From Naegleria gruberi (lineage: Eukaryota), in assembly GCA_000004985.1 (NCBI GenBank), contig GG738850.1: 64,000 nt of DNA. One strand, written 5' to 3'. Under the pieces are notes generated by a model that had not been told where the DNA came from, made no database searches, and was given only the letters and a program-made list of their open reading frames with translations. The position numbers were made by a program, and so were the translations under genes. Of this stretch, positions 16,862 to 53,050 are shown piece after piece (position 1 is the first letter of the stretch; every line of letters begins with the position of its first letter).

Positions 16862-16974
16862 GATGATCTGTAGGATTCGAACCTACGAAGCTTATGCTAA
16901 CGAGTTTGATTGCCGTACAATCCATTGAAACATGAATCAATATTGTGTCGCCTTAACCACTCGGCCAAGATCAC
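16862..16974 (-). tRNA. Class-II (Ser/Leu-type D-arm) tRNA-like gene, 113 nt, intron-containing; anticodon ambiguous (UGA/Ser is the best guess)
   Basis: The reverse complement is GTGATCTTGGCCGAGTGGTTAAGGCG...GTAGGTTCGAATCCTACAGATCATC. It has a 7-bp acceptor stem with G1-U72, a GGCCGAGTGGTTAAGGCG D-arm, a canonical GGTTCGAATCC T-arm, and a T6 terminator immediately 3'. A perfect ACAAT/ATTGT stem flanks a 20-nt spacer that contains TGA. The remaining variable region, about 29 nt, is longer than usual. Confidence 0.55.
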
Positions 16975-23234: not shown

Positions 23235-24715
23235 ATGAGTAATCACAGTTATTCCGTTTCTTTGCTTTCGGGAAGTGTGAGTAATTTATCATCCAATAAT
23301 ATAAGTGCTAAATTTGAAGGATTTTGTGGAGAGTTATTTAGGTTAGTTTCTAAGGAGAATAGTTTAGACTTTTTTTCCGACTTGTACGTTTCTTACAGGT
23401 TAAATTCTTACAACCATTTTTGAATAAGCTACAAGGTCATAATTTCTGCTGTTGGTGATTGCATTAACTTGATGAAATATATCTTTGAAAAAACAGGATA
23501 TATTTATCCAATTAATCTACCTAGTATTCATAATGCTGGAACTTATTATAGAACTAGTTTAACAAGAGTTTTGCCAAAACCTTGTTATCTATATCTTCAA
23601 AGAAAAGAAGAGATTCCTTATTTGGAACTAAGCAAGATTAAAGACTTTTATGAGCAATTGATTTTACAAACAAGCGAAGAATCAAGAATGAAGGAATTAA
23701 AATTCAAATCTGAAACTTTTCAAAAAATTTTCCCAACTTTATTATTTGGAGATGAAATAGTGATTGAAAATAATTTTGTAGATATGTTATTTAACATTAC
23801 AACAATTAATGATACAACTGTTAAGGTTAATCAAGTTAAGTGCAAAGAAGACACAAAACAACTATTCAAAACATGTTCTGTTCTGTGTCAAAGAGCATGA
23901 TATTATTACTGAAAAGTATCTGTTCAGAGCTCAAACTCTCCCTTCACACTGATAGCTCATTGTTGAGAGATGTGATTCCTTTACCTCTAATGGAAGAGAT
24001 TCGTTTCAAGATCTTGGTAAGTATTTAAGTTGAATTATTATCTTCAAGTATTATCCAGAGAAATCATGTCAACAAAGTTTACTTGGTTGAAAAGAAAGTC
24101 AATGGCAAATGGAAAAAAAAGGAAATAATTAAAGTTTGTAAAAGTGAGGCTGCATTGCAAAAAGAGATGTTATATGGACATTCATCATTTACTAATGCTA
24201 ATCACAAACTTATTGGTATTCCATACTATGAGTCGATTAAAAAACTAAAGTCAAACGAAAGAGAAGCTCTTTTGAATATGGCCATTGAACAAGATTTGCT
24301 CCACATTTCTAAACTTGTTCATTGCGATTTAAAACCAGACCATATTGTTATAGATCCATTGAGAGATACTGGATTTAGATTATTGGATTTTGAGTTTGTT
24401 GTTACGGAAGGTGATGAGGTCATTGGCTACACAAAAGGATATCATCCTCCTGAATATGATTGTCTTGAAAATCAACAATATGCAATTGCATCAAGGAAAT
24501 CAGATGTTTTTTCACTTGGTTTGTGTATGCTCCACTTTATGAACAATGAATTCATTCCCAATAGATTAGAAATACCAGATTATTTAAAGGTAATTGAGGA
24601 CATACTTTTGAGGGATGTATTAACTCAAATGCTTGAATTGGATTGCTCAAGGAGATTATCAGATGCTTCAGATATTGTTACAATGCTAAAAGATGATATC
24701 AATCAATTTCCTTAA
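23235..24715 (+). CDS. Atypical protein kinase-like protein, multi-exon. Proposed exons: 23235..23341, 23429..23834, 23894..24016, 24059..24715. The first two junctions are uncertain.
   Basis: The GTAAGT donor at 24017 and the ..tattatccag acceptor at 24058 are well supported by frame. The resulting kinase core reads RNHVNKVYLVEKKVNGKWKKKEIIKVCK...HCDLKPDHIVID...LLDFEFVV...GYHPPEYD...SDVFSLG. It has no GxGxxG loop, and DFE replaces DFG. Upstream, a GTTAGT donor at 23342 has two candidate acceptors (23398 and 23428). A GTTAAGT donor at 23835 with an acceptor at 23893 fixes the frame change. Confidence 0.45.
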
Positions 24716-24824: not shown

Positions 24825-25790
24825 TCAATATAAGCAAAGTCTTTTTAATTTTTTCATTCCACTTATCAATTTTTCTCCTTTATCACCAATTCGATTATGA
24901 CGAATATCAAGATCTGTTAATTGTTTCATTTCACTTATGTATTTGGCCCCTTCGTCACCAATTCTATTGTAAAATATAGAAAGTTCTGTTAATTGCTTCA
25001 TTTCACTGATAAACTTGGCTCCTTCATCACCAATTTCATTGTGACCAATAGAAAGTTCTGTTAATTGTTTCATTCCACTTATCAATTTGGCTCCTTCATC
25101 ACCAATTCCATTACCATAAATATAAAGACATGTTAATTGTTTCATTTCACTAATGTATTTAACTCCTTTGACACCTATTTGATTGTCACCAACATGAAGT
25201 AATGTTAACTGTTTCATTTTACTTATCAATTTGGCTCCTTCATCACCAATTCTATTTCTATTAATATCCAGTGCTATCAATTGTTTCAGTTTACATAGGT
25301 ATTTAACTCCTTTTGCACCAATTTGATTCTTAGAAATACCAAGTGATATTAATTGCTTCATTTCACTTATCAATTTGGTTCCTTCATCACCAATTCGATT
25401 TGTTGGCACAAAAAGTGCTACCAGTTGTTTCATTTCACTTATGAATTTTACATTGTCAGAGTCCAACAAGTTTTCAGAAACATTAACGTTAACAATACAA
25501 TTCATAAATTGACTTTTCATTAACAATTCAATTCTATGCTCTGTAAATTCTTTTTTAAATTCAAGACAAAGATATGAACGTTCCTTGATCACATTAAACC
25601 ATTGTTTTGAAATTAAGGAACAAGTATTCAAAATAAACCACGAATTATCAATCATGGAAATTATTTCAAAACAAACATCATCTGAAAATATATTATTCTC
25701 TACTAATCATTGATTAAGCATTCAAGAAAATATATACCCACCTTCTTGTTGTCTTATCTCCATGGTGAAATTAGTACAAATATTTCCCAT
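24825..25790 (-). CDS. F-box/LRR protein (RNI-like 24-aa repeats ISEMKQLTxLxIxxNxIGDEGAKx). Two exons: 25742..25790 and 24825..25681.
   Basis: A previously unlisted 5' exon (MGNICTNFTMEIRQQE) is joined by a GTGGGT...TTTTCAG intron (25741..25682). The spliced N-terminus DDVCFEIISMIDNSWFILNTCSLISKQWFNVI is a classic F-box. It is followed by at least 8 near-identical LRR units. Confidence 0.6.
24880..25440 (-). repeat. Near-identical 72-nt (24-codon) tandem units inside the LRR gene
   Basis: Forty-mers such as catttcacttatcaatttgg(c/t)tccttcatcaccaattc recur at about 25070, 25210 and 25360. Confidence 0.6.
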
Positions 25791-26844: not shown

Positions 26845-27603
26845 ATGAATAGAGAGAAATACATACAATCATTTGCTTGTGGTCAACCGAAAGTTTTCCA
26901 ATTGCCAAGTATTAAACAACTGTTGTATGGAGACTTGTCATCATGTAGAACCAATCATAATACGAAACAAGAGGAAACTAATGGTTATCATCCAGTCATG
27001 CAAGGTCAGACATGTCACCAACCTTTCTCTACATGTTCAACTAAATGCATGCCACTCCAATTACATGAAACTTCTCCACAAGTAACTTATTCGAAACCAC
27101 AGCTGGAAGTTAAACGACTCGAACATCAAGTAAGAATTATGGAATCTCTTGTGAAGAAACAAGCAAAGGTAATTGAAGATTTGGAAAATGAAAAGAAGAG
27201 AAAGTTGAAGGAAATTGAAAGACAACTCGAAAGTCAACCAAAGAAACTAAAGCAAACTAAATCAAATTCCTTCATATTTAAAACATGCTTATTAGAAAAC
27301 AAAGATAATTCAGAAGAAGAAACGTCAATCTTGGACGATTTAAATAATCATACGGTAACTTGGAAAAACGAGACTTTCGTATTAATTGATGCCTTTAAAA
27401 ACCGAAACAAAATCCTCAATTATTTCATTCCACTCTATCAAAGTCAATTCCCAAATAAGAAATGTAAATTAGTTCTTTCAAGTGAAGAATATAGAAAGCT
27501 ATTTAAGGAAAATTCACATCGGAGTCAATCAGAGAGGAAACACGCTTGGAGAATTTCAATTTTCACTTTGGATTTCTATAATTTCGTAAAGAATCAAATG
27601 TAA
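26845..27603 (+). CDS. Hypothetical coiled-coil protein (central KRLEHQVRIMESLVKKQAKVIEDLENEKKRKLKEIERQLE heptads)
   Basis: 252-codon ORF with an ATG. No homology recognised. Confidence 0.4.
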   Translation: MNREKYIQSFACGQPKVFQLPSIKQLLYGDLSSCRTNHNTKQEETNGYHPVMQGQTCHQPFSTCSTKCMPLQLHETSPQVTYSKPQLEVKRLEHQVRIMESLVKKQAKVIEDLENEKKRKLKEIERQLESQPKKLKQTKSNSFIFKTCLLENKDNSEEETSILDDLNNHTVTWKNETFVLIDAFKNRNKILNYFIPLYQSQFPNKKCKLVLSSEEYRKLFKENSHRSQSERKHAWRISIFTLDFYNFVKNQM

Positions 27604-27766
27604 ATAATATTGCTAATGTAACTGTTTTTTGTAATAAAAGAGAATACCTTGTTTATGATATTTTGTTGGAAGAATTCATGTTCCAGAGCTTTAACTGGAT
27701 CTATCTCTTTCATTCTCGACAACCATTTTAGAAATCAAATCCATAGCATCTATATTGGTTGGATCA

Positions 27767-28620
27767 TTACTGCACTGCAACATTTTTACAAAATTCCAGA
27801 TCAATAATTTTCAAAACTGAATCAGTGCAATCGAATATGATATTATCAGGTTTCAAATTATTGTGAGTTACAAGATTTCTTCTCATATAGACACATGCAT
27901 TCAAGAGTTGCTTCATATAACTTCTAACCTCATTGATATCTGATGGAAGATACCCTGCTCCCTTCTTATATTCCATAATGAGAACTATTTCATCATTGGC
28001 TAAACTGAAATTGAAATCTAGAATTTCAAGAATATTTGGATGAGAAAACTTTCTATGAAATTCAATCTCACTAATTACATCTCTATAACTACGCAACTGA
28101 TAATTCTTCTTCACCAAATCAGTCTTTCCATCTGAAAACTGGTTTGGATTTGCTGCTATCCTTCTTACAATTGGATATGCATATTGCAGGACAGAAACAA
28201 TACTGCAATCATTTTCTTTCTCAAACTCTAAATGTCTCTTTGCAATGGCTGACCACTTTTCAATCTTATCAACTGTAATATCAAATCTGAAACTGTCAAT
28301 TTACTCCCAGAAAGGAACCAGTAATGGAATGGTAAGGATTTTTTCTCATCCTCTATTAGAAAGTACATGGAAAATAAGATGAATGGATGCAATTTTGAAC
28401 TATATGAATTTACACGAACTTCTTGTGGAGAGTCAATAGAAACTTTGTGATATTCAATCTTTGAAAGAAGTGTTTTTGTAAAAGCATTATTATTTGGAAA
28501 GGATTCAGCTATGGAGAATTTGAAAAAATTTGCTTTGTAATCTCCATGATAACAAATGATTAAGGAATCGGTTGAGAGACCGAAAGAATTCTTCTCAATA
28601 GAATTGTTAAATTCAAACAA
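27767..28620 (-). pseudogene. Decayed paralog of the atypical kinase at 24059..24715. It shows a frame discontinuity between its N-terminal ORF and kinase N-lobe, and a premature stop right after the DLEF (DFG-equivalent) motif.
   Basis: The kinase frame gives ...KWSAIAKRHLEFEKE...EIEFHRKFSHPNIL...THNNLKPDNIIFD...KIIDLEFCKNVAVQ* then stops. The activation loop, APE and the C-lobe are missing. The upstream ORF (28228..28620) is in a different frame, with no intron able to join them. It shares the family-specific LKPD(H/N)I(V/I) and D(F/L)EF motifs with the intact copy. Confidence 0.5.
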
Positions 28621-28807
28621 ACACTTGCATTTTTTTTAGAGTTTGTGAGTATAATTTGAGACTAAGATAGGGTTTCATATGTTCTTTGAACATGAAAGAA
28701 CAGTAACTACAGTAACTATGTTGTAATGGAGCTATATGGTGTCTTTACAAATTACCTACCCCCCTGTGTCAACAAAAGGCAAATAAAATAACAGCATGTA
28801 AAAAGTA

Positions 28808-28879
28808 TAGCAAATCTAGGTTTCGATCCTAGGACCTATGGGTTATGAGCCCATCGCGCTTCCGCTGCGCCAATTTGCT
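28808..28879 (-). tRNA. Initiator tRNA-Met (anticodon CAU)
   Basis: The reverse complement is AGCAAATTGGCGCAGCGGAAGCGCGATGGGCTCATAACCCATAGGTCCTAGGATCGAAACCTAGATTTGCTA. Initiator hallmarks are present: A1-U72, three G-C pairs in the anticodon stem, and the GATCGAAAC T-loop (A54/A60). It is 72 nt long. Confidence 0.9.
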
Positions 28880-29892: not shown

Positions 29893-32800
29893 TTATTTAT
29901 GTTTGCTCTGATTATTCATAAAAGAATTGAGATTAAAATCTTGATATTGCTTATCTTGATCATAATCTTCCATTGTTTCCATAAGTTGTCCAAGTCCAGA
30001 TTTCTTTGGTTTTTCAAGTTGAGCAGCAGATGATGAATCTGTTCCATTTGAACCTGAAAAATTGAACAAATCAACCAATTGATCTGTATCCATAGATGAT
30101 AAACTACTATTTTCCTTATTAATAACACTCTTTGAAATGTTTGTTTTAAACTTTTGTAAACCCATAATCTTTTCTTCCAAAGTGTTTCTAGTAATAAGTC
30201 TATAAACATTAACAACTTTCTTTTGACCAATACGATGCGCTCTATCCATAGCTTGTAAATCAGCAGATGGATTCCAATCATGTTCAACAAAAATTACAGT
30301 ATCTGCACCTGTAAGATTCAATCCTAAACCACCAATCTTTGTAGTTAATAATAAAACATCAATAGTTGGATCACTATTAAATTTTGTAACAATTTCATAT
30401 CTCTTTGTTGTTTCAACATCACCATCCAATCTCATAAATGTTACATTTGGCATATATTTAGCAAATAATTCATTTTGAATAATATCAAGCATTTGTTTCA
30501 ATTGACAAAATATTAAAACACGATGTTGATTAGAACTATCAACATCACTATTACCCGCTCCAATACCACAATCATTTAAAAGTTGTTTCAATGATAATAA
30601 TTTTGGTGATAAATTAACATCTCTAACATCTAATCCTTGTTGTTTGATTTCTTGTGTTACAGATTCATACATTGGATGATCCGGTTCTAATACCAAACAT
30701 GGATGATTACAAAGCTTTCTCAAATATTTCAAAGCTTTAAATACATGTGAATTTTCAGATATTTCCTTGGCTTTGGTTTTGTCTTCTTGTTGGCTCTTCA
30801 ATTCTTGTGAAACTTTGGAAATTTCCTTCTTTGCAAAAAATTCATAAAGTTTTGATTGAATAGGTGAAAGATCACAATAATAATCTTGAATAATCTTTTC
30901 AGGTAAATCATGTAAAACATCTTCTTTAACTCTTCTTAAAAGGAAAGGTAATACTTGTCTATGTAAATTTTGTAAAGCAATTGTACCTGAAGCTTGTTCT
31001 TTAGAATTTGCTTTAGCATCTCTACTTGATTGAATTGGTTTACTGTACTTGGCATTAAACTCCTTTTCTGTTCCTAAAAATCCTGGCATTAAAAAATCAA
31101 ATAATGACCACAATTCTAAAACATTATTTTGAATTGGAGTACCTGAAAGTAATAATCTGTGATTAGCCTTAATTTGTTTAACAGCTTTGGTAATTTGAGT
31201 CTTCTTATTCTTAATAATATGACCTTCATCTAAAATACAATAATTCCAATTTGATTGACAAGCAACAATATCCTTAATATCATTTCTTAATAAATCATAA
31301 GAAAGAATGACAATATCTTGATTATGAAATTCAGATCTCCATAATTTTCTCTGAGCAACTGAACCATAATATTGAAGTGATTTCAAATCTGGACAAAACT
31401 TTGAAATTTCATCAGCCCAATGCCCAAGTAAAATTGGTGGACATACAACCAATGAAGGTAAATGAACAAATTCTTGGTTACCAGTTTGTTGAAATTGAAT
31501 CTTTCTCATATGAATATCACTATAAACCATACAAATTGTTTGTAAAGTTTTACCCAAACCCATATCATCGCATAAAATACCATGTAAATTATACTTGTTC
31601 AAGAATGCTAACCATGAAACTCCATCTTTTTGATATTGACGAAGTTCTGCATTAATTTTGATTGGAATATCAAATGGAACAACTTTAGAATTATCTAAAA
31701 GTTGATCAATAAATTCATGTTCTTCTGCTAATTGTTTTTCAAGCCCTTTAAGTGGAATGGCTGATTTTTCCAAAGGTAAAAGTTTGATAACTGAACCAAA
31801 ACAATTTGATGAAATTTCACGTGTAACATCATCTTGATCGCTCATTCTCTTTAAAAGTGGAACTGCAAAGAATGCAACTGCTGGTAAACATTTCATTTCA
31901 AGTCTTGAAATTAATGAAAATATTGCCAATGATGAACCTCTTCTTGAATAAACATTTGTTGGATTTGCAAGTAGTGGTACAAGTTGTTTTACAATAATAA
32001 TCAATGCTGGTTCTTCCATATAATAACAAATTTCTGAAATTGTAAGAGCTGCATGTTTTCTAATTTCAATATCTTGATGTGGAACATAATTTGCAATAAT
32101 TGAACCCAAAACATGTGATAATGTTTCATAGAGTTGAGAATTAATTGATGGAACAATACTTCTCAATATATGAAGTGCATTAACAATAGTCTTTTCAGGT
32201 GGTTGAGGATTTGTCTTATTCAATAAACTAAAATCAACTTGTTGGAAAATTACATCAAGAGTATGCATTCTTAATGGTTCGAGATCAATGAATAGCCTCT
32301 CCTTGAAAATTGTTGCAATTTCATTCAAGGAAATTGAAGCACCTCTTTGTGCTATTTGAGAAGGATCATCTTTTGTAGAATCTACTTGAGAAGCTGCATC
32401 TTTCAATTCATTAATTTCATCTTCCTTAATAGAACTACCGCTAGCAGCACCGGTTGTAGTAGAACCCTTCTTTTTTCTTCCCTTCTTTTGCTTTTCCGTT
32501 GTTTCAACTTCATTTGGTTGAGCATTTTCCTTTTCCAATGCCTTGTGTACAGTTATTTTTGGCATTGTCTTGGATAAGAGATCTAAAAGCTTCTTTACAA
32601 TGGCTGAATTTGGTGGAGGTATTAAATCCTTACAAACAATTAACATTTTTGCAATGGATTTACATGCAAGTTTTTGAAGTGTTAAACTTGATGCTTGACT
32701 TTCCACAGTTGAAAGAAGTTGAACCATCATTTTAGATAAAACTGATTTTTGTGGAACACCTCCTTGGAAAATTAAAGCAGATGACAAAATTGATAATGCT

Positions 32801-35343
32801 CTATTTTGAATGAGTAACCAATTTGTAAAGTAAGTATCAAGTGCTGTCTTGACTCTACCAGCAAGAGTTTCCAATTCTTGAAGAAGTGTTGGATGTTCAA
32901 CCAAATGTTGAGCATAATATTCACGATATTTCCCAATCAAATCTTGTGCAACAGCTGTTGACATGTTCAGAGATGGAAGACCTTCTTGATTATATGAATA
33001 AAAAGAAGAAACATCCCAGCCAAGTTTTGAATAAAATTGAAGAAGGTAATTACATTCAGTGACCAGTGGTGTGAAATAATGTTGAATTTCAACCATATTA
33101 CTCAAATTAACAGTATCCACTATTTGAGAAAGTAGATTTAAACCCGTTTCTGGTAAATTAAATGTTACATTTCTTTCTCCACAAGTTTGGAAAATATTTT
33201 GAAGTAAAATACCAGCTGTTTCTTTGTGAAGTGCAAATGCTGATCTTAACAACAAGTCAAAAGTGGTGAAAAGTTCGTTCAAATTTTGTGGTTGAGTTAT
33301 CGATATGGTAAAAAGTGCAATAGCCTTTGAAGTTGCAATTCTCATTAAAGTGAGTTCTTCCATATCTGAAACTTGTAACCTCATAGAGAATGTTTGTTTT
33401 TCTGCGTTATCCAATGATTTAGATCCATCATATTTTCTCTTAAGAGAATCTGTTGCTCCCCATCTATTAGAAATTGAATTGTAAACTTCTTCTGGTAAAG
33501 TCATTAATGAAAGGTCAAAATTATTTCCAACTGGAGTTGACATTAAAGAAGCCCAAGCACCAATATATCTCGCCATGATCGGTGTGAGGTAATCTTCTGG
33601 AATACGTCTAATGAAAGCTTCCCAAACAATCAAAGACTTTTCTACTATATTTTCTTTAGGATCCAAAATTAAATTTTGGAAAATAAGAGCAATAATATGT
33701 TTTAGCACATTTTCTTTAAGAATCCAAGAATTTGCTGTAATTTCAGTTCTTTGAATAAGCTCTTGAAGTGTTTCCAATGCTGACATTCTCACAGTTATAA
33801 TATTGTGTCTCAAGTATGGATATAATCTTGGTACCAATAAATGTAATCTATCTGCAAGAACAAGTTCATACATTGGAATGGAATATAATTTAGCTAATAA
33901 TGTCATTATACTTGCTGTTGAAGATGATAAATCATCCATATCAATAAGTGAATCCCATAAAATTGAAAAGATACCATTCACATAATTTCTATCCATTCTC
34001 ATAACATGTTCAGCAATAGGAACCAAACAATCAGCAGCAACTGCTTTAACATCATCGGCAGATGTAGACCCAGCTTCATCAGATAAACACATAATTATGG
34101 CAGGAAGAACCATTCCAAATAATTCATCTATTGCCTCTGTTCTAAGCGCAACAGCATATTTCAACCCCAGCAGTGCATTGTGTCTAACTTTCCATTCTTG
34201 ATCATGTCCCATAAGAATAACTAAATTTGTAATCACATGTCTCACTGTTTCACTATTAAGATATTTGAAAATTAAACCTAGAATTTGAGCTCCTGTTTCA
34301 GTAATTGGAGATATTGGTAAATCCGATAAATAATCTGTAAATTTGTCAAGTGCAAATAAACACAAAACTCTAACACAGCAATCTTCTAACCACAATTCAT
34401 TTGCATATTGTAAATTTTGAGTGAATATTGATTTACCAGCAGATTGAAGTTGTTCTGGTACTTTAAGAATTTCTCTAATTGCAATAGCTGCACCATGTCT
34501 TATTGTCCAAGATGAATTGAACAAATCAACTAGGAGACGTTCAGTTAAAATTTGGAATGGCCATCTTTCATGTTCAAACATATCAGATGTATCTACAGCA
34601 CTTTCAATCACTATTTTGTTTTCAGATTGTGGTTGTTCTGTAATGACTGTTTTCATTTTCTTAGCTTGTCTTTGATCTTCCTCGATTTGTTCATCAATAG
34701 ACTGATTATTTTGTTTCTTATTTTGTTTTTGCATGAATTTTTCTCTTCTTTCTTTTGCACTTAGGGGTTGACTGTTTACTTCTTCAGCTTCATGATTGTT
34801 TACAGGTTCCTTCTCAGTTGCACAAAGCAACAAGGATTGTTTTTCTTCAAATGATAAATATCCTAGACGCCCATAAATTTGACGTTTGTGAAATGCTAAT
34901 TTGTCTTTAGGTTTGAGGTGTTTAATTTGTTGTTCCTCATCGGGCACTGCAAGATTTGAACCATATAATGGTATTCCATTCTTTACTACATGCCTAATAT
35001 TAAAGTTGGCAAAACGGAATTTCTCTTGTTGTGTCTGGTAGTCTTCTTGTAATTTTTCATAATTTCGTACTTGTTGTTCTTGTGTTAATTCTTCCTTTTT
35101 AATATTTGCTTGTTCTGGTCTGTAGAGAGGAACATTTTGTGCAATAGCATTGATTGCTTCACCAGCAGCAGAACGTGTTTCCCAAGAACTTGATCCTAGT
35201 AAAACACTAATTTTGCTCAATACAGAAGGTATTTCGGCTTGATGAAATTTTGTTGCTTCTGCTATTTGTTTAGCAGCCGCGGATCGAACAGCAGGTGAAC
35301 CACTGTCCAACAGATTGAGTAATCTATCAAGACGAGAAGTCAT
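29893..35343 (-). CDS. TATA-binding-protein-associated factor Mot1/BTAF1 (N-terminal HEAT repeats plus C-terminal SNF2-family ATPase), intronless, about 1816 aa
   Basis: From the true ATG (reverse complement of 35341-35343) the N-terminus [30 protein letters not shown] matches Mot1/BTAF1. SNF2 motifs are present: [22 protein letters not shown] and [29 protein letters not shown]. Confidence 0.85.
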   Translation of the reverse strand: [1816 protein letters not shown]

Positions 35344-35828
35344 GTTGTATGACAACTAAAAACGATAAAAAGAAATATAAATTGTTTTGTAGGTTATGTG
35401 TTGTTTTATTTTTTTGCGGTTGGTTAGAGTTAATTTTGTTATTCTCCAACGCATGTTTCGGTTGTGTTCATTACAACCCGCAAAACCAATCAAAAACAGA
35501 CAACAAATAGTTACAATGAACTGTTTGTGCGCATTGTCCATACAAACAATGCAATTCGATAACACGATCAATTCAATCTAAACCAAATTTTTCAATGCTC
35601 AATTCAATACTGTTCTTGTAATTGGGAAAGAAAAACTCTATACTGAACATATTCTCTTTCTCTCTTTATTTAGTTTTCAAAAATAGCTTCAAGAACCTTC
35701 AATTAGAAGTATTTGACTCATTTTACACCCATGTTCACTCTGGCTTCTATTTTCTGTGGGGATTGCAAGCCTTGTTGATGTGGTGTTAAAAAGCCTTTGA
35801 TTAAAAATCAATAATTATAAGCAAAAAA

Positions 35829-50425: not shown

Positions 50426-50545
50426 GACTACGGCCATATCACGATTCATGCACCTCATCCCGTCCGATTTGAGAAGTTAAGCATCGTCGAGCCACATCAG
50501 TACTGAGGTTGGAGACAACTTGGGAACCTGTGGTGCTGTAGTCTT
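50426..50545 (+). rRNA. 5S ribosomal RNA gene (chromosomal, dispersed copy) with T5 terminator
   Basis: The sequence GACTACGGCCATATCACG...CCCGTCCGATTTGAGAAGTTAAGC...AGTACTGAGGTTGG...GGGAACCTGTGGTGCTGTAGTC is followed by TTTTT. Helix I pairs GACTACGGC with GCTGTAGTC. Confidence 0.85.
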
Positions 50546-50662: not shown

Positions 50663-50733
50663 TGCGTCGACCGGGAATTGAACCCGGGTCACGGCGATGG
50701 CAACGCCGTATTCTACCACTAAACCATCGACGC
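50663..50733 (-). tRNA. tRNA-Gly (GCC), copy 1
   Basis: The reverse complement GCGTCGATGGTTTAGTGGTAGAATACGGCGTTGCCATCGCCGTGACCCGGGTTCAATTCCCGGTCGACGCA folds as a cloverleaf with anticodon GCC. Confidence 0.9.
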
Positions 50734-52979: not shown

Positions 52980-53050
52980 TGCGTCGACCGGGAATTGAAC
53001 CCGGGTCACGGCGATGGCAACGCCGTATTCTACCACTAAACCATCGACGC
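52980..53050 (-). tRNA. tRNA-Gly (GCC), copy 2 (identical to copy 1)
   Basis: Identical 71 nt. The 11 nt immediately 5' of the gene (CTTAGTAAGAA on the minus strand) are also identical between the copies. Confidence 0.9.

Follow-up and report, generated by a model that had tools for sequence, protein, structure and literature searches.

The locus lies on the minus strand of a 64-kb stretch of Naegleria gruberi DNA that was analysed as a whole (the window, GC ~31%). Upstream it is flanked by a tRNA-Met(CAT) gene and downstream by a coiled-coil gene, the ORF of which (26845-27603) is 100% identical to NAEGRDRAFT_63351. Another ORF of the window, at 24167-24712, is 100% identical to NAEGRDRAFT_63349, and both genes are on a 707-kb scaffold of Naegleria gruberi NEG-M. 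N. gruberi uses the standard genetic code and has 1.7 exons per gene, with a mean intron of 203 bp (PMC8296547). An alternative genetic code or ciliate-type tiny introns, either of which the low GC content and the short GT-AG segments had brought to mind, were dropped on these grounds. Between the tRNA and the coiled-coil gene we found a colinear but broken copy of a gene, which occupies 28630..27594 and the parts of which are collected in Table 1. No protein model from 27.6-28.7 kb was found among the 5.8 billion proteins searched, so the locus appears unannotated. A scan of the whole window against Rfam gave zero matches at gathering thresholds in this interval, with just the tRNA-Met upstream of it.

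Table 1. Parts of the broken gene copy and of its upstream flank, in window coordinates
Feature	Coordinates	Strand	Basis
tRNA-Met(CAT)	28808..28879	minus	ARAGORN; Rfam tRNA 64 bits; directly upstream of the relic, context only
Conserved upstream element TGTTCaaaGAACATATGAAACCCTA	28666..28695	minus	three-way DNA alignment of window, L001 and L002
Relic start ATG CAA GTG TTT with 4-nt tandem duplication (GTTT GTTT)	28615..28630	minus	sequence; comparison with L002
N-terminal domain relic (FEFNNSIEKN...FHYWFLSG)	28305..28614	minus	35% identity over 102 aa to the P0003 N-terminus, E 7e-16; tblastn
Junction lesion	28289..28304	minus	pairwise alignment with L001; family protein alignment
Kinase-domain fragment (N-lobe, catalytic loop HNNLKPDN, DLEF)	27770..28288	minus	Pfam Pkinase; P0001/P0002 identity; PDB matches
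AIAK motif	28249..28238	minus	
THNNLKPDN motif	27868..27842	minus	
DLEF motif	27802..27791	minus	
TAA-TGA stop	27769..27764	minus	
~127-nt deletion site	27732..27769	minus	tblastn gap; family alignment; identical sequence in L001
Out-of-frame C-terminal kinase remnant	27594..27765	minus	three-frame translation; 65% identity to P0002 213-238

The relic consists of an N-terminal domain, a kinase-domain fragment and a C-terminal kinase remnant, which are not in one reading frame. The N-terminal part has no Pfam match and occupies a frame of its own without an ATG; as the original prediction had it, the upstream ORF (28620..28228) and the kinase do not share a frame. There is no ATG-initiated ORF in the window over either the N-terminal domain or the kinase fragment. 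The kinase-like frame and its DLEF motif were present where they had been described, and the frame does stop right after the DLEF region, at ...CKNVAVQ followed by TAA-TGA. The activation loop, APE and the C-lobe had been reported as missing. The activation segment and APE are indeed gone, but this is not a simple cut-off: the last ~30 kinase-domain residues persist downstream in two other frames (DAMDLISKMVVENER in frame +1, IDPVKALEHEFF in frame +2). This remnant reads DPTNIDAMDLISKMVVENER and, after an additional G at ~27705, IDPVKALEHEFFQQN... to a stop at 27594. The window copy is thus not a complete kinase domain, as its activation segment, APE and C-lobe (subdomains VIII-XI) are not in frame.

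Homology of the fragment to protein kinases is clear. Pfam Pkinase matched it with an E-value of 5.6e-17 and 62.4 bits (gathering cut-off 31.7), over profile positions 39-148 of 263 only, and the homology spans alphaC to the DFG position, with HPNIL, LIMEY and LKPDN motifs present. In PDB, 466 kinase sequences matched at E<0.001, the best being CDPK2 (38.3 bits), ULK3 and PAK1, all at 37-38 bits. While this places the fragment with PF00069 kinases of the CAMK/STE-like kind, it differs from them in that the catalytic Asp is replaced by Asn and the DFG Gly by Glu, the glycine-rich loop is degenerate and the C-lobe is deleted. The catalytic loop had been written as HxxLKPDN in the original prediction; the loop is there, but the 'xx' concealed its state. 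It reads HNN in the window and in its ortholog P0001 and HHN in the paralog P0002 (both described below), aligned to HRD of CDPK2 and HLD of ULK3, so that the catalytic Asp is absent from both paralogs, with Asn in its place. In this respect the relic can be likened to pseudokinases lacking the HRD Asp. At the DFG position the window has DLE-F and P0002 has DVE-Y, the Asp being kept and the Gly changed to Glu. Since H-(N/H)-N and D-(L/V)-E occur in both paralogs, their ancestor was probably already a catalytically inactive pseudokinase.

The AIAK motif, which had been taken to hold the beta-3 Lys, is present but does not fit this role. Its Lys (K17) and the alphaC Glu further on (E74 of the fragment) are 57 residues apart, and the motif aligns to DIAER in the paralog; the usual spacing between the beta-3 Lys and the alphaC Glu is ~17-20 residues. 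A plausible candidate for the beta-3 Lys is K55 or K60/61, in a conserved GKTDLV(I)KK block that lies outside the confident alignments, given that the PDB and Pfam alignments, including those to CDPK2 and ULK3, begin at fragment residue ~59.

To place the relic within a family, we searched the 5.8-billion-protein collection with its stitched conceptual translation as the query and recovered just three relatives. P0001, from an ENA metagenome, is 92-93% identical to the window fragment and is encoded on a contig that we call L001. P0002 is NAEGRDRAFT_73971 (XP_002671006.1), an uncharacterised N. gruberi protein encoded on another scaffold, of 250 kb; it matches the fragment with 48.5% identity and 164.7 bits. 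P0003 stems from the same metagenome as P0001, from a paralog locus that we call L002, and is a strain variant of P0002 (~91% identical). In P0003 a single ORF holds the complete architecture, in which the kinase-like domain directly follows an N-terminal domain of ~105 aa (no Pfam match). AlphaFold2 run on P0003 (N-terminal domain and N-lobe) with a 4-sequence alignment gave an unusable model (mean pLDDT 38.9, pTM 0.36). An exhaustive phmmer search with P0003 against 1.84 billion representatives found P0001, P0002 and P0003 as the only genuine members; a 2229-aa repetitive translation (P0005) was rejected, its phmmer match being due to low-complexity repeats. Scanning JGI metagenome contigs with the family alignment produced 99 pattern matches, 0 of which were confirmed. 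As these searches added nothing, two loci make up the family, which does not extend beyond the N. gruberi complex.

The relic is colinear with its relatives along its whole length. Residues 3-109 of P0003 correspond to 28620-28282 of the window, residues 10-155 of P0002 to 28288-27776 (this is the stretch of 48.5% identity) and residues 213-238 of P0002 to 27731-27660 (65% identity); residues 156-212 of P0002 have no counterpart in the window by tblastn or alignment. The window copy and NAEGRDRAFT_73971 have in common PRF(G/D)IT, PNQFSxGKTDLV(I)KK, LLNAC(A/V)YMR, VTH(H/N)NLKPDN, KIID(V/L)E(Y/F)C and RIDPxxALEHEFF. They differ in that NAEGRDRAFT_73971 has kept the C-lobe (activation segment, APE, D-x-Y-S-x-G), which the window copy is without, and its Pkinase match accordingly reaches profile position 202 of 263, versus 148 in the window copy.

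Comparison with the ortholog and the paralog located four lesions in the window copy. The first is a GTTT duplication after codon 4, which throws the N-terminal domain out of frame: where the paralog L002 starts with ATG CAA GTA TTT GAA TTT (MQVFEF), the window has ATG CAA GTG TTT GTTT GAA. At the second, a net 31 nt are missing relative to L001, where GTTTC stands in place of 36 nt coding SEEKDYLTLWCP; the N-terminal domain and the kinase are thereby put out of frame with each other, and a TAA remains in the frame of the kinase. At the third, 171 nt in P0002 correspond to only 44 nt in the window, a net deletion of ~127 nt that removes P0002 residues 156-212, and with them the activation segment, APE and subdomain IX (D-x-Y-S-x-G). 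This deletion also shifts the frame, and the TAA-TGA stop arises at its junction. The fourth is the +1 G in the C-terminal remnant, which occurs in the window only; L001 reads through this region in one frame.

Comparison with L001 separated old lesions from recent ones. This 1772-nt metagenomic contig shares 95% identity with the window along 1482 nt, and its flanks match, with the tRNA-Met upstream and the convergent coiled-coil gene downstream. L001 has both the ...CKNVAVQ-TAA-TGA end and the C-lobe deletion base for base as in the window, so that the main lesion is real rather than an assembly error and predates the split of the two strains. The remaining three lesions (GTTT duplication, 31-nt deletion, +1 G) were seen in one assembly only. 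L001 in turn has private lesions: its start region is lost, and it carries a 2-nt deletion, a ~122-nt deletion in the N-terminal domain and a 1-nt junction deletion. It was also counted with a 30-nt deletion of its own, and it is without the 31-nt deletion and the +1 G of the window. When the extra T of the window is joined to the 30 extra nt of L001, the junction becomes open and reads FLSGSKLTSEEKDYLTLWCPRFDITVDK, with a length equal to that of the paralog's FLKFHELNREEMDYLNEHYPRFGITDEH. In all likelihood, therefore, the common ancestor still had an intact junction, which was then disrupted separately in the two lineages. P0001 is an ATG-initiated 187-aa ORF of L001 that covers the kinase fragment, and the window has no ATG for such an ORF because its 31-nt deletion took the region with the ATG of L001.

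Over the fragment, dN/dS between the window and L001 was 0.93 (Nei-Gojobori; 13.5 non-synonymous and 3.5 synonymous changes, 17 substitutions only), versus 0.23 for the adjacent coiled-coil gene; the probability of that many non-synonymous changes is ~0.02 if omega is 0.23. Together, the lesions, the dN/dS and the lack of an ATG-initiated ORF are the signature of an unprocessed pseudogene, and with at least four disabling lesions in the window, of which the C-lobe deletion and stop are shared by L001, the original prediction of a decaying pseudogene was borne out. The relic resembles other unprocessed (duplicated) eukaryotic pseudogenes in keeping its flanking and promoter region, in being colinear with its parent family and in showing frameshifts, deletions, stops, a dN/dS of ~1 and independent lesions in sister lineages; it differs from them in nothing essential. 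We put at about 0.9 the probability, as judged from sequence, that the locus is an ordinary, previously unannotated, unprocessed pseudogene of a tiny Naegleria-specific pseudokinase family.

The pseudogene probably arose as follows. The family, which joins the ~105-aa N-terminal domain to a short degenerate protein-kinase domain, would have lost the catalytic Asp (HNN/HHN) and the DFG glycine (D-L/V-E-F/Y) before the duplication that gave two old paralogs. Since this duplication is old (<50% protein identity), the copy probably functioned long before dying. In the window lineage the ~127-nt internal deletion would then have shifted the frame and brought in the TAA-TGA stop, before the split from the L001 strain. 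Presumably no longer expressed, the copy would have drifted from that point on, the window gaining the GTTT duplication, the 31-nt junction deletion and the +1 insertion and L001 its other indels.

Upstream of the coding region, the two paralog loci share a partly palindromic element, TGTTC(aaa/ctt)GAACA(T/C)ATGAAAC(C/T)CTA, which lies at 300-335 in L002 and at ~130-165 in L001, and the core of which, GAACAYATGAAAC, has one exact match in the 64-kb window. The element in the form TGTTC...GAACAYATGAAACYCTA and the ATG context AAACTCTAAAAAAATGCAAGT are common to both loci, and the element is conserved while the coding regions of the paralogs are <50% identical. The element probably serves the family as a promoter or transcription-factor site, or once did so, and by this resemblance the paralog duplication can be said to have carried the upstream region along. 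A tRNA gene of matching orientation also immediately precedes each locus (tRNA-Met(CAT) for the window and L001, tRNA-Ala(AGC) at 183-256 for L002), which is either coincidence or a trace of how the duplication arose.

The second paralog shows hints of decay as well. L002 has an in-frame TAG (...PISLK*DEITLFMEY, L002 ~1030-1045, P0002 residues 78-80). In NEG-M, the model of NAEGRDRAFT_73971 begins only downstream of the N-terminal domain and removes as an "intron" 78 in-frame nt (GTATGT...ATTAG), which encode the alphaC-to-beta4 segment including HPNIL (EYVINELEFHRKYSHPNILSILAYPIS in L002). The TAG and the skipped 78 nt make the integrity of this paralog uncertain: it may be damaged too, or it may be mis-modelled. 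These hints would fit a young lineage-restricted pseudokinase family that is being lost, with a novel N-terminal domain and with each locus behind a tRNA and a palindromic element; in a variant of this reading, 28030-27767 would have been kept for a residual function, as a small protein or a regulatory RNA. The variant touches on the spread of substitutions between the window and L001, 16 of which fall in 28288-28031 (258 nt) and 1 in 28030-27767 (264 nt), where a neutral rate of ~4% predicts ~10 (P about 1e-4 to 3e-4). Strain recombination, a chimeric metagenome contig, residual constraint and chance could each produce this unevenness; some constraint on the HPNIL..DLEF segment is conceivable. 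On the whole we regard either form of this reading as unlikely.

The same near-invariant second half of the fragment could be taken to mean that the locus is a live gene for a truncated kinase-like protein, comprising the N-lobe and catalytic loop, made from an internal start or by way of very short introns. Lacking a C-lobe, such a protein would serve as a scaffold or decoy. In favour of this, L001 has its stop at the corresponding position and keeps the 187-aa ATG-initiated ORF. The window, however, has no ATG for that ORF, and the N-terminal domain of L001 is destroyed by frameshifting deletions of its own, so that no common gene structure is left in both strains. The overall dN/dS of 0.93 likewise speaks against a live gene, and a kinase fold reduced to one half, with the C-lobe gone, would probably be unstable.

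For rescue by introns, we enumerated all GT..AG pairs of 20-500 nt bridging each frame break. It had been claimed that no GT-AG intron of the right length class reconciles the two frames. Mechanically this is not so, as frame-restoring pairs of 32-89 nt exist, among them a 32-nt GTAAAT..TTACAG at 28304..28273 and many others, and a 42-nt intron predicted in the neighbouring gene suggests that very short introns may occur in the N. gruberi genome. The candidates (the 32-nt GTAAAT..TTACAG, 40- and 89-nt GTAAAA..AG and so on) all remove conserved coding sequence, excising codons conserved in the paralog, and none restores the C-lobe, so intron rescue was rejected; the 32-nt segment is not a credible intron because it removes codons (RFDITV) conserved in both the ortholog and the paralog. 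We consider a live gene at the locus very unlikely.

The original prediction had further proposed that the relic is an inverted duplicate of a neighbouring atypical kinase, which later became a pseudogene. This neighbour, NAEGRDRAFT_63349 (XP_002681375.1, P0004; 24059..24715), is where it was said to be, on the opposite, plus strand ~3 kb away and with LRR and coiled-coil ORFs between, and it carries HCDLKPDH and DFEF. Like the relic, it is a divergent gene of the Pkinase fold with D-x-E-F for DFG and an LKPD(N/H)I catalytic loop. Apart from this, little connects the two. By BLASTP the fragment is 39% identical to the neighbour over just 28 aa, around the catalytic loop, and P0002 is 27% identical to it over 81 aa. 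By phmmer the fragment scores 11.2 bits against the neighbour (E=2, Z of the PDB search), as compared with 38 bits against CDPK2, to which the other PDB matches below 1e-3 can be added, and 164.7 bits against P0002; by these scores, the two supposed copies are not each other's closest relatives. The best PDB matches of the neighbour, DYRK2 and p38, are in a different kinase group, and a word-indexed search gave no homolog of it but itself. It retains HCD, and has KPDH instead of KPDN. The N-terminal and upstream regions of the two are unrelated (E 0.23). At the DNA level, a search for an inverted repeat between the loci found only chance-level inverted matches of 21-27 nt, and blastn between them gave a best E of 0.025, with none better than E 0.3 on opposite strands. 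A far closer paralog with the same N-terminal domain, NAEGRDRAFT_73971, is on another scaffold. The D-x-E-F that both share is a convergent or very old feature and does not count as evidence for a local duplication. The proposed origin from the neighbour is highly improbable.

It is barely credible that an otherwise intact gene only seems broken through faults of sequencing or assembly: the three window-specific lesions are indeed known from a single assembly, but the decisive C-lobe deletion and TAA-TGA recur base for base in a metagenome that was assembled independently, as many as four separate errors within 1 kb are implausible, and the missing C-lobe is encoded nowhere else in the 64-kb window.

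The pseudogene reading is of value mainly for annotation. The interval from the tRNA-Met to NAEGRDRAFT_63351 in NEG-M should be labelled a pseudogene, and the relic should stay out of Naegleria kinome counts. From the comparison there also emerges a very small family that is specific to the N. gruberi complex and combines an N-terminal domain with a kinase-like domain without the catalytic Asp, and the database models NAEGRDRAFT_73971 and NAEGRDRAFT_63349 are flagged as probably imperfect. No general biological question hangs on the locus.

Several other features of the window were observed in passing. The NAEGRDRAFT_63349 model (182 aa, start at 24167) seems to be truncated at its 5' end, within a region that spans 23990-24715 on the plus strand. 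An ATG at 23990, together with a predicted 42-nt GTAAGT...CCAG intron (24017-24058, phase 0, containing a TAA), would add beta-1 to alphaC and give MEEIRFKIL/RNHVNKVYLVEKK...IIKVCK...QKE. The domain extended in this way has a degenerate glycine-rich loop, KPDH for KPDN and DFE for DFG. Next to it, on the minus strand at 24825-25655, is a 276-aa leucine-rich-repeat ORF of the LRR_6 type (Pfam LRR_6, E 5.8e-36). Its N-terminal stretch resembles an F-box by eye only, with no F-box family reported by Pfam. As the protein collection does not contain the exact sequence of this ORF, the gene model that was deposited cannot be identical to it. On the other side of the relic, an uninterrupted 1820-aa ORF (29893-35355, minus strand) looks by its sequence like a Mot1/BTAF1-type SNF2 ATPase with N-terminal HEAT-like repeats. 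Among RNA genes, a 113-nt Rfam tRNA match at 16862-16974 on the minus strand (37.3 bits), absent from the ARAGORN output, is probably an intron-containing tRNA gene. A 5S rRNA gene (101 bits) lies at 50426-50544 on the plus strand, and two tRNA-Gly(GCC) genes with identical scores, at 50663-50733 and 52980-53050 on the minus strand, are near it and form with it a small RNA polymerase III cluster.
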